From contig CAMTWV010000002.1 of the NCBI GenBank assembly GCA_947085535.1, forward strand, positions 94,199 to 158,198: a DNA stretch of 64,000 bases. Reading direction: 5' to 3'. A program made the translations under genes and the position numbers. Below the pieces are notes generated by a model. That model saw only the letters and a program-made list of their open reading frames with translations. It was not told where the DNA came from and ran no database searches. The DNA is from an uncultured Actinomycetes bacterium (GTDB taxonomy: Bacteria; Actinomycetota; Aquicultoria; Subteraquimicrobiales; CAMTWV01). Each line of letters starts with the position of its first letter. Position 1 is the first letter of the stretch. Shown piece by piece: positions 58,725 to 61,940 of this stretch.

Positions 58725-61076
58725 TTAAGCATAAAACAACCAATCGAGATTGCTGGCAAATTTTCTTCTCACAGCTTGAAATAGTGGTCGATTTTCAGAT
58801 AATTTCAGAGCAGGGTCTTTTTCTATTAATTCGAATGCATCATCTCGAGCTTGAAGCAAAATATTTATGTCACGAGTAATCTTGGCTAACTTTAAATCGG
58901 GTAAACCCGATTGTCTGACTCCAAAAATTTGCCCCTCGCCTCTTATTTCAAGATCAAGCTCCGCGAGTTTAAAACCATCATGAGTGTTAACAATAGCTTC
59001 CATCCGTTGTCTGCCTTCATCTGTGGTTGGGTCAGCAAAAAGGAAACAATAGCCCTTGTGCTGTCCTCGTCCAATCCTGCCTCTTAACTGGTGAAGCTGG
59101 GATAAGCCAAATCTTTCAGCATCCTCAATTAACATAACAGTTGCATTGGGAACATCAACACCAACTTCAACGACTGTCGTTGAGATAAGAACATCTAATT
59201 CTCTTCCGACAAAGGATTCCATGATTGTTTCTTTTTCTTCTGTCTTTAATTTGCTGTGAATAAAACCCACTCTTAAATCAGGAAAAACTTCGTTTTCTAA
59301 TCTTTCAATTTCAGCCATAACTGCTTTAACTTCTAACTTATCGGATTCTTCGATTAAAGGACAAATTATGTAAGCCTGTCTTCCCTGCCTTACTTCGCTT
59401 CTTATTTTCTCATTGGCGAAATTTCGGTGAGTTTTATCTAAAACAGTAGTTTCTACATGTTCAGATAGGTTTCTCCCTCCGGGAAGTTCATTAATAATTG
59501 AAATATCGAGGTCTCCATATAAAGTAAGTGAAAGAGTTCGGGGAATTGGTGTCGCAGTCATGACAAGAACGTCAGAAAAAGTTCCTTTTTCTTTAAGTGC
59601 CACTCTTTGTTGAACACCAAATCTGTGTTGTTCATCCACGATAACTAAACCAAGTTTAGAAAAGACAACGTCTTTTTGGATTATAGCGTGTGTTCCGATA
59701 ACTATATCAACTTTACCTTTACTGATTTCTTCTTGTAAAACTTTCTTTTCTTTTTCAGTTAAACTTCCTTTAAGTAAGGCTATTCTTACGGAAGGCATTC
59801 TTTCATGGGATACAAATAAACTTTCCAGTAAGTGAGTTATTTTTTTAAAGTGCTGTTCGGCTAAGATTTCTGTTGGAGCCATCATGGCTGCTTGATAACC
59901 ACCTTGCACAGCAACAAGAAGTGAAGCAAGAGCCACTACTGTTTTACCTGAACCGACCTCACCTTGCAGCAAGCGATTCATTGGTAAAGGAGAAGCCATG
60001 TCTTTTAAAATTTCTGAAATGGTTTTTTTCTGGCTGTTTGTCAATGCAAAAGGTAAAGAGCAATAAAATTCATCAATGAGTGGTCCTTCAATCTGGTGAG
60101 CTATGCCTGTTGTTTGATTCTTAAATTGTTTCTTACGAAAAGCTAATCCGACTTGCATTAAGAATAATTCCTCGTAAAGCAATCTTCTTCGAGCTTCCTC
60201 ACAATATCTCTCCGATGTGGGAAAGTGTATTTCTTTAAGGGCTGAATAACGGTCTAAAAAATTGTATTTGGCTAATATAAAGGAAGGCAGCGAGTCAGAA
60301 AGAACCGGAGAAGTGTCAAGCATATTTTTAATTATTCGTCGAAGTCGGGCTGTGGTTAGATATTGGGAAGCAGGATGAAACGGAATAATTCGACTGGTAT
60401 GGACAGTGTCTTCGCCTAATCGGGTATCTTCATCAATTACTTCGTAAAGAGGATTTTCTATTTGGAGCTGACCATATCTAAAGGAAGTTTTTCCGCTAAA
60501 AGCAACGACCATACCATCTTTTAACCTATCCGCAATGAAATCCTGATTAAACCACACTCCATAGAGATATTCTGTTCCATCAAAAATACCCACATTTATA
60601 ACTCGAATACCGCTTTTGCCCACAGTTTTCCGAACAATTTTAACCTCGCCGACTACAGTTACCTCTTCACCAACCTTTACATTTGATATGGATAAAACTT
60701 TTGCCGTGTTTAAATAGCGATGCGGAAAGTGATAAAGCAGATCTTCAACAACAAAAATACCCATTCGATTAAGCTGCTTCGAGATACCAGGACCAACAAA
60801 CTTAAGATAAGTTACTTCTTTGTCTAAAAAGTTCGATTCTAAAGCATAACCATTTTTCGGGGATTCTTTTATAGAAATTCCTTTATTTATGTAAGAGTTA
60901 AGGAATTTTTCGCGCTCTTTAACAAGGGAAAAAGGATAAATGCGGGCAATTTCTTTGAAAGATTCATTTATTGAGGAAAGGTAAACATCAAATCCCCCGA
61001 TGACAGCTCTATTTTCCGCATTTAAGTTTTTTTCAACTAAAAAAGAAATTTTTTCAGAGGATTTTGTTTCGGAAAT
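58725..61076 (-). CDS. recG: ATP-dependent DNA helicase RecG; 5' end extended beyond the ORF-track ATG to a probable ATT start
   Basis: Helicase motifs GSGKT and DEQH, plus a wedge domain. The ORF track starts at 60764 (MGIFVVEDLL), but the frame stays open to the fakB stop. It encodes the conserved LKFVGPGISKQLNRMGI.VEDLL..P.RY segment plus ~85 more residues, with no ATG/GTG/TTG. GAGGAGGGG ends 9 nt before ATT at 61074-61076. The extended product is 783 aa. Confidence 0.85.
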   Translation of the reverse strand: MSETKSSEKISFLVEKNLNAENRAVIGGFDVYLSSINESFKEIARIYPFSLVKEREKFLNSYINKGISIKESPKNGYALESNFLDKEVTYLKFVGPGISKQLNRMGIFVVEDLLYHFPHRYLNTAKVLSISNVKVGEEVTVVGEVKIVRKTVGKSGIRVINVGIFDGTEYLYGVWFNQDFIADRLKDGMVVAFSGKTSFRYGQLQIENPLYEVIDEDTRLGEDTVHTSRIIPFHPASQYLTTARLRRIIKNMLDTSPVLSDSLPSFILAKYNFLDRYSALKEIHFPTSERYCEEARRRLLYEELFLMQVGLAFRKKQFKNQTTGIAHQIEGPLIDEFYCSLPFALTNSQKKTISEILKDMASPLPMNRLLQGEVGSGKTVVALASLLVAVQGGYQAAMMAPTEILAEQHFKKITHLLESLFVSHERMPSVRIALLKGSLTEKEKKVLQEEISKGKVDIVIGTHAIIQKDVVFSKLGLVIVDEQHRFGVQQRVALKEKGTFSDVLVMTATPIPRTLSLTLYGDLDISIINELPGGRNLSEHVETTVLDKTHRNFANEKIRSEVRQGRQAYIICPLIEESDKLEVKAVMAEIERLENEVFPDLRVGFIHSKLKTEEKETIMESFVGRELDVLISTTVVEVGVDVPNATVMLIEDAERFGLSQLHQLRGRIGRGQHKGYCFLFADPTTDEGRQRMEAIVNTHDGFKLAELDLEIRGEGQIFGVRQSGLPDLKLAKITRDINILLQARDDAFELIEKDPALKLSENRPLFQAVRRKFASNLDWLFYA

Positions 61077-61082
61077 TTTCGA

Positions 61083-61940
61083 TTACCCCTCCTCGTAGAA
61101 AAAGAGAGCTACGGCACCTGGACCGATATAAGTTCCAATTACGCTTCCTATTTGAGCTTCAAGAAGAGAAACATGCTCAATATTTTCTTTTTTAATTTCC
61201 TTTATAAGTAAGTCAGCTACTTTTTTATCATCAGAATAAGCCACGCCTAAACGGAGGGGCTTTTCCCCACTGATACTTTCTTTAAGAGAACTAATTAGCT
61301 CAGGCATGATTCGTGCGGTTCCCCTGATCTTTTTATAAGGTGCGACAACACCGTCATCAAGGGTTAAAACAGGTTTTATGCTAAGCAAAGAACCTACAAG
61401 AGCTTGTGCTTTACCAATTCTCCCACCCAGATGAAGGTACTTTAATGTGTCAAGAACGAAGAAAATTTTAACTTTCTCACTTAAAGAATTGGCTAAATTA
61501 GCCAGGTCATTAAAAGATTTTCCTTCGTTTCTTGCCCTTACAAGAGCATCAACAATCATTCCGAGGGCAGCAGATGCTTGTTTTGAATCGATAATTTCGA
61601 TGGCTGCTCCTTTTATCATTTCTTTAGCCGCAGTGGCTGAACCAATGGTACCGCTTAATTTTTCAGAGATATGCACTGATATAATCTGAGAGCACCCTTC
61701 TTCAACAAGTTTTTTGTAAGCGCTCATAAATTCCATAGTGGTTGGTTGAGAAGTTTTGGGTAAAACCTCAGATGTTTTTAATCTCTGGTAGAAATCTTCA
61801 GGATTCATTTCTGTCCAGTCACGATAGATTTCTTCCTCTCCAAACCGAACGGTTAAGGGAACTATTATCACCTCGTTTTCTTTGTAATATGAAAGCGGTA
61901 AGTCGGCAGTACTATCTGTTACAATAGCAATTTTTTCCAT
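61083..61940 (-). CDS. DegV-family fatty-acid-binding protein (FakB-like)
   Basis: 285 aa. IAIVTDSTADLP N-terminus and TSQP motif. It is adjacent to the DAK2-domain protein, as in Fak systems. Confidence 0.88.
   Translation of the reverse strand: MEKIAIVTDSTADLPLSYYKENEVIIVPLTVRFGEEEIYRDWTEMNPEDFYQRLKTSEVLPKTSQPTTMEFMSAYKKLVEEGCSQIISVHISEKLSGTIGSATAAKEMIKGAAIEIIDSKQASAALGMIVDALVRARNEGKSFNDLANLANSLSEKVKIFFVLDTLKYLHLGGRIGKAQALVGSLLSIKPVLTLDDGVVAPYKKIRGTARIMPELISSLKESISGEKPLRLGVAYSDDKKVADLLIKEIKKENIEHVSLLEAQIGSVIGTYIGPGAVALFFYEEG

Follow-up and report, generated by a model that had tools for sequence, protein, structure and literature searches.

A probable AUU initiation codon for recG behind a strong Shine-Dalgarno sequence in an uncultured Subteraquimicrobiales bacterium

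Initiation at AUU or AUA is a known bacterial exception, with infC, pcnB and ccpN among its described cases. The Escherichia coli infC and pcnB genes combine an AUU start with a Shine-Dalgarno (SD) sequence lying inside the upstream gene and a stop codon a few nucleotides (nt) before the start; initiation at the thrS-infC junction (UAA GGU AUU) is owed in roughly equal parts to re-initiation and to de novo events (PMC3592434). In Staphylococcus aureus and Bacillus subtilis, ccpN (AUA), cvfC1 (AUU) and citZ (AUA) couple a non-canonical start to a strong or extended SD, and S. aureus AUU/AUA starts with extended SDs yield ~10% of the AUG output (PMC13009471). The subject of this paper is the start of recG in a 64,000-nt stretch of DNA (the window; contig CAMTWV010000002.1 of assembly GCA_947085535.1) from an uncultured bacterium, which the names of its closest homologues place in Actinomycetota, Candidatus Aquicultoria, Candidatus Subteraquimicrobiales. 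Its recG gene very probably begins at an ATT (61074-61076, minus strand) behind a very strong SD, and not at the downstream ATG from which it has been annotated.

The junction between recG and the DegV/FakB-family gene directly upstream of it, read and translated on the minus strand, is ...TAC GAG GAG GGG TAA TCG AAA ATT TCC GAA... The recG ribosome-binding site sits in the final DegV codons, GAG GAG GGG, and the recG sequence (UAA UCG AAA AUU) has the same anatomy as its infC counterpart. By analogy with infC and pcnB, low output and a mixture of de novo initiation and re-initiation would be expected for recG (PMC3592434). The two differ in that infC is another gene, so that there is no reason to expect autoregulation by IF3 at recG, and in that the infC AUU is kept across many bacteria whereas the recG ATT is seen only in one species-level clade. 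With ccpN, cvfC1 and citZ, recG shares the pairing of a non-canonical start with a strong SD and the fate of being misannotated by standard gene callers, and citZ is likewise a lineage-restricted variant; those starts were mapped experimentally by Ribo-Ret, however, whereas that of recG is deduced from sequence (PMC13009471). The rsb genes of Listeria monocytogenes are reported to show a strain- or species-level change to a weaker start codon that lowers protein dose, and the change in recG would be a similar one (PMC13068326). The recG ATT is thus a further case of the known exception and presents no new mechanism.

From the DegV stop to the first ATG of the recG frame there are 106 codons (104 from the ATT), none of which is ATG, GTG, TTG or CTG. 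Residues counted from the DegV stop run 2 higher than those counted from the ATT, and the ATG is residue 107 from the stop. Absence of start codons is by itself only mildly unusual, since ~2% of 106-codon stretches within real genes of the window lack a canonical start; as a leading run, however, more than 38 start-less codons occur at just two places in the window's six frames, at recG (106) and at a sigma-28 open reading frame (ORF; 122) that is taken up below. That the 318 nt of this leader are coding follows from their composition: the recG frame contains no stops, where the five alternative frames have 8, 10, 5, 5 and 7; mononucleotide shuffling leaves the leader stop-free in only 0.015% of cases (P = 1.5e-4); and the per-codon score for usage in the frame is 0.31-0.38, against means of 0.38 for the window's genuine genes and -0.71 for wrong frames. 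Scans of the 318-nt 'gap' turned up no Rfam family and no promoter-like or terminator-like site. An initial annotation, made from the letters of the DNA, had claimed that the frame is open back to the DegV TAA without ATG, GTG or TTG, that it codes for recG upstream of the ATG, and that a start at the ATT gives 783 amino acids (aa). Reading and translating the strand bears out the first claim; stops, shuffles, codon usage and homology the second; and simple addition (104 codons and 679 aa) the third. The coordinates are collected in Table 1.

Table 1. Features of the recG and whiG loci and of orthologous DegV/recG junctions (window coordinates unless another locus is named; CDS, coding sequence)
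Feature	Position	Strand	Remarks
DegV/FakB-family gene, 285 aa, directly upstream of recG	61083..61940	-	Pfam DegV 285 bits
SD of recG, GAGGAGGGG	61086..61094	-	Predicted paired core GAGGAGG = 61094-61088
DegV stop TAA	61083..61085	-	Between SD and ATT (6 nt before ATT), in recG frame
ATT, proposed recG initiation codon	61074..61076	-	SD, junction position, family register, four assemblies
N-terminal accessory domain, residues 1-64 from ATT	60885..61076	-	Motif N22-R-A-V-I-G-G-F29; three predicted helices
Variable linker, residues 65-85	60822..60884	-	Poorly conserved in long-form relatives; AlphaFold2 (AF2) predicted local distance difference test score (pLDDT) <50 at residues 66-80
First conserved RecG wedge segment, residues 86-104, upstream of first ATG	60765..60821	-	
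First in-frame ATG, publicly called start (679 aa), no SD	60762..60764	-	ORF list
Full proposed recG CDS, 783 aa and stop	58725..61076	-	NCBIfam equivalog and Pfam domains
Rival internal start: AAAGGA 60884-60879, 6 nt, ATA 60872-60870	60870..60884	-	Product would be 715 aa
Sigma-28/whiG ORF	32085-32951	-	122 start-less codons; sigma region 2 upstream of first ATG
SD of whiG, AGGAGGAG	32878-32885	-	Paired AGGAGG core -10.2 kcal/mol at 9-nt spacing
Proposed whiG start ATA	32868-32870	-	7 nt after AGGAGGAG
Window junction, GAGGAGGGG TAA TCGAAA ATT	window 61074-61109		SD -12.1 kcal/mol
L111 junction, CAGGAA TAA TCTTT ATG	L111:1168-1203		SD -4.3 kcal/mol
L112 junction, CAGGAA TAA TTTT ATG	L112:1168-1203		SD -4.3 kcal/mol
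L113 and L026 junctions, GAGGAG TGA AYTMT TTG	L113:1168-1203, L026:3968-4003		SD -8.1 kcal/mol

The product from the ATT is a RecG. Its wedge (an oligonucleotide/oligosaccharide-binding (OB) fold) is followed by both lobes of the helicase and by the C-terminal domain typical of RecG (Pfam RecG_wedge 79 bits, DEAD 81, Helicase_C 76, RecG_dom3_C 64), and its scores exceed the cutoffs of the NCBIfam equivalogs NF008168 (900 bits, cutoff 718), NF008165 (833, cutoff 711) and TIGR00643 (727, cutoff 659). Thermotoga maritima RecG (1gm5) aligns to it at E = 3e-160 over the wedge and helicase core. These alignments place the beginning of the conserved protein upstream of the ATG: counted from the DegV stop, 1gm5 sets in at residue 86, RecG_wedge at 90 and E. 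coli RecG at 91, so that homology to 1gm5 and RecG_wedge begins 17-21 codons before the ATG, and the short-form model NF008165, from its profile position 6, matches from residue 84 onwards (counting from the ATT). A start at the ATG would accordingly remove ~20 conserved residues of the wedge, and the 1gm5, Pfam and NCBIfam alignments agree with the initial annotation that the ATG-started ORF truncates a conserved wedge segment. What it had said of conserved upstream codons in general requires qualification: residues 1-40 (the core of an N-terminal domain) and 84-104 (wedge) are conserved, but residues 41-83 are a family-variable linker.

These observations bear directly on the reading that the public annotation is right and translation starts at ATG 60764, the upstream 318 nt being untranslated. 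This ATG is the sole canonical start codon and the gene callers' choice in all four assemblies that carry the locus, a choice of limited weight because the ATT was never considered by them. It has no SD (-1.6 kcal/mol), it deletes wedge residues that align with the RecG of T. maritima, with that of E. coli and with the Pfam and NCBIfam models, the frame upstream of it is free of stops and has the codon usage of coding sequence, and the 57 nt immediately preceding it are identical between the two haplotypes described below. We regard a start at this ATG as very improbable. The 679-aa product is nonetheless the one recorded for the window contig as well as for L027, L028 and L110.

The leader encodes, ahead of linker and wedge, a predicted helix, the motif [ND]-[RK]-A-V-I-G-G-[LF] at residues 22-29 and further predicted helices, at the extreme N-terminus of RecG; homology in this N-terminal domain begins ~100 codons ahead of the ATG. 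A profile of this N-terminal domain, built from six long-form N-termini and searched against 1.84 billion proteins at E<=1e-3, matches 784 representative proteins, nearly all of them aligned from their own residue 1, and the six full-length matches that were tested all proved to be RecG, 700-928 aa long. The profile matches indicate that the 65-residue N-terminal module is a real, RecG-specific family; it occurs mainly in Chloroflexota and Candidatus Aquicultoria (members P0003-P0164). The closest long-form relatives, among them P0195, P0213 (Candidatus Oleimmundimicrobium), P0237/P0001 and P0187-P0198, at 50-58% identity overall, have in common helix 1, the motif N-R-A-V-I-G-G-F and then a YL.SIN segment. 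The family also supplies a register for the start. Of ~150 sequences, drawn from the best of the 784 matches with five seeds added, 113 have the A of AVIGG as residue 24; in the window protein, counted from the ATT, it is residue 24 as well, which is the family mode.

Scans of the window RecG found no Pfam or NCBIfam model for the NRAVIGG domain, even though the module is widespread enough to fill 784 representative clusters. The AF2 model has helices at residues 4-17, 26-43 and 50-64, a disordered linker at 66-80 and a confident wedge, and suggests, at low confidence, that the N-terminal domain resembles a three-helix bundle. Searched against PDB with Foldseek, this model, of low confidence in its N-terminal domain, recovered only the wedge/OB fold. 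The initial annotation had compared the 783-aa protein with the long form of T. maritima RecG. The likeness holds for total length (1gm5 has 780 aa) and for the presence of an extra region before the wedge, but the two N-termini have no detectable sequence similarity: the phmmer alignment of 1gm5 starts only at Thermotoga residue 113, leaving its residues 1-112 unmatched, and the N-terminal domain profile, run against PDB, did not match 1gm5 even at E<=10 and returned no RecG. The window's N-terminal domain is of the NRAVIGG family instead. One other candidate relative, P0082 (1553 aa, 11 profile matches), was rejected as a biased repeat protein made of INQTILQALDGYA repeats, and a second, alignment-based homologue search yielded only short fragments without names.

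With regard to the signal for initiation, the duplex energy of the recG SD with the 16S rRNA tail is -12.1 kcal/mol (for the genes of the window the median lies at -5.9 and the 10th percentile at -10.3), which ranks it among the three or four strongest of ~55 genes, roughly the top 5%. The leader contains ten in-frame AUH codons (AUU, AUC or AUA); ATT 61076 is the only one with a strong SD and is the first near-cognate in-frame codon after it. Thus no canonical start precedes the conserved N-terminus, and a codon at the position where homologues start has a strong SD at workable spacing. At the orthologous junctions in four relatives (L111, L112, L113 and L026), recG starts 4-5 nt after the DegV stop, compared with 6 nt in the window, and the termination-reinitiation layout, with the SD within DegV and the start a few nt past its stop, is the same. 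The weaker the start codon, the stronger the SD across these junctions: -4.3 kcal/mol with ATG, -8.1 with TTG and -12.1 with ATT. By position, then, the ATT is the equivalent of the canonical starts of the relatives. The ATT is the best-supported start because it has a strong SD, lies 6 nt past the DegV stop and makes the A of AVIGG residue 24, and on SD energy, family register and junction comparison the earlier proposal of an ATT start behind an SD in the DegV tail has held up well. The extra strength of the window's SD goes with a longer SD stretch, and DegV also ends there with an additional GGG codon.

The consequences of this arrangement can be set out as follows. The GAGGAGG within the last codons of DegV would hold the 30S subunit at AUU 61076-61074. 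Re-initiation is possible because the DegV stop falls between the SD and the AUU, and ribosomes ending DegV would probably re-initiate 6 nt downstream, adding to de novo initiation. The weak start codon would probably keep RecG synthesis low, with the strong SD compensating in part. RecG is a low-abundance repair enzyme, and a weak start is therefore plausible as a control of its dose. That the AUU is decoded as an initiator we infer from the anatomy of the junction. De novo initiation and re-initiation would each account for some share of translation, and low RecG expression may be a selected outcome rather than a tolerated mutation.

A single in-frame stop separates DegV and recG, which share one frame, and it had been suggested that read-through of this TAA could formally allow a low level of DegV-RecG fusion; the stronger version of the proposal is that RecG is mainly made in this way. 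Neither fares well: L026 and L029 have DegV and recG in different frames, and a T comes directly after the TAA, which in E. coli termination contexts makes a strong terminator. The 120 best homologues listed, moreover, contain no RecG with a DegV domain. The fusion as the main source of RecG is extremely improbable, and even low-level read-through finds no support here.

The same TAA TCG AAA ATT and the open frame behind it are found in four independent assemblies: the window and three further ones (Logan ERR3478695, GCA_964480305.1 and Logan SRR27458589). They represent two haplotypes ~2% apart, and in all of them the gene has been called as 679 aa. The ATT is one base removed from ATG, and an error of sequencing or assembly might be suspected on that account; the four assemblies derive from different read sets, however, and include the second haplotype with its 11 differences nearby. 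We reject this explanation, which is scarcely conceivable. recG almost certainly begins upstream of its public start, at the ATT, and its first 104 residues are for that reason missing from the public gene calls.

Several observations nevertheless weigh against the ATT. The predicted paired core, GAGGAGG, ends 11 nt before it, near the outer limit for strong-SD genes of the window (2-12 nt, median 6); the 9-nt spacer originally proposed is obtained if GGGG is counted as SD but not from the predicted pairing. In relatives of 46-58% identity, ATG or TTG stands in place of the ATT. The ATT is conserved in four assemblies that are only ~2% diverged; it is a derived state of a species-level clade and could be a recent and merely tolerated mutation. 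No relative at 75-95% identity across the leader was found in a scan of metagenomes with the single protein, and a profile scan reached at most 53%; P0253, 75% identical, is a fragment that starts after the leader region. The ratio of non-synonymous to synonymous polymorphism (pN/pS) between the haplotypes is 0.49 in the leader (7 non-synonymous and 4 synonymous differences) versus 0.11 in the core, with too few changes to tell relaxed constraint from neutrality, and all 11 leader changes are confined to codons 4-54. In the AF2 model, the N-terminal domain has a pLDDT of only 49-71. Finally, the short-form RecG proteins of close relatives (L001-L003) show that RecG works without the N-terminal domain.

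In a rival reading, translation starts at a near-cognate codon within the linker (ATA 60872, ATT 60878 or ATA 60890), yielding a short form of ~715 aa, and the N-terminal domain codons are a remnant orphaned too recently for stops to have arisen in it. ATA 60872 has an average SD (-5.7 kcal/mol, approximately the window median) at the optimal spacing of 6 nt. The short forms L002 and L003 begin 21-23 residues before the wedge, and MAFFT pairs M-I-D-K of L003 with Y-I-N-K of the window there. All leader differences lie upstream of codon 55, moreover, at a density (6.8%) close to the synonymous rate. Yet a start in the linker likewise requires a non-canonical codon, and the strong SD, the family register and positional orthology all favour ATT 61076. 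The amino-acid changes between haplotypes sit at family-variable positions and leave the conserved residues of the N-terminal domain intact, and the density of differences (10 per 150 nt) is equalled in two bins of undoubted coding sequence, in Dak2 and in the RecG core.

Between the haplotypes there is also a tract of 408 nt (window 60515-60922) without differences, where ~8 would be expected at the 2% average; it covers the linker and the first part of the wedge, and could reflect strong constraint or a tract of recombination. Since the tract continues into the wedge, it marks no start site. Taken with the intact residues and the equally dense coding bins, this also opposes the leader as a decaying neutral remnant; an internal start is, on balance, improbable, and the ATT remains the preferred start of recG.

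The short forms merit a separate remark. L001-L003, the closest relatives in the genome collection (59-63% identical), have lost the N-terminal domain and start 21-53 residues before the wedge (L001:2887-3050, L002:791-860, L003:2983-3050). In L001 the 53 N-terminal residues (...KDGLFGRPGDF...) may still contain the NRAVIGGF segment in degraded form.

A second gene of the window has the same anatomy. The sigma-28 ORF, a whiG gene, likewise lacks canonical starts over a long leading segment and has an ATA at a short distance behind a strong SD (Table 1). From this ATA the product exceeds the NCBIfam WhiG equivalog cutoff (346 versus 343 bits) and aligns to Streptomyces WhiG (6pfj) from residue 6, and the same ATA is present in the independent assembly ERR3478710 (L114). 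The SD, the WhiG cutoff, the 6pfj alignment and the independent assembly uphold the claim of the initial annotation that sigma-28 is a second case. A scan of the window's ORFs of >=100 codons for AUH or CTG codons that precede the first canonical start and have an SD at least as strong as -8 kcal/mol returned only recG and whiG. The protein collection contains the 679-aa RecG but no entry for the 166-aa product of the ATG-started sigma ORF (window 32088-32585, minus strand); the sigma-28 gene must have been called differently in public annotation, or not at all.

recG and whiG thus join the short list of bacterial genes apparently using AUU or AUA with a compensating strong SD, the purpose of which, in these two genes, is probably to hold protein dose low. 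The initial annotation had gone on to propose genuine use of AUU/AUA in this organism: the two cases were indeed found, but genuine use is a deduction from anatomy, without deep conservation. Two cases in 64 kb are more than expected. The window has 2 such genes per ~60, as against roughly 0.1% of genes in E. coli or S. aureus, and S. aureus has four per genome (PMC13009471). One might extrapolate that the species, perhaps a wider lineage, starts a few percent of its genes at AUU or AUA behind very strong SDs, a generalization that we think rather unlikely to be right. If it were, discrimination of start codons would be relaxed or differently tuned, for example by way of IF3 or initiator tRNA, and such genes would be systematically truncated in all automatic annotations of these genomes.

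For recG the finding is chiefly an annotation correction. The four public calls of 679 aa lack part of the wedge and the whole N-terminal module and leave a false 'intergenic' gap of 318 nt, and gene callers that admit only ATG, GTG and TTG will repeat the error in related genomes. The window contains no detected tRNA genes. Around recG the order Asp23 - Dak2/FakA - DegV/FakB - RecG - RsmD - CoaD - (152-aa protein) is found at window 57162-63924 and in L026-L029 and L111-L113; this gene order is conserved across the actinobacterial class and resembles the arrangement in Firmicutes.

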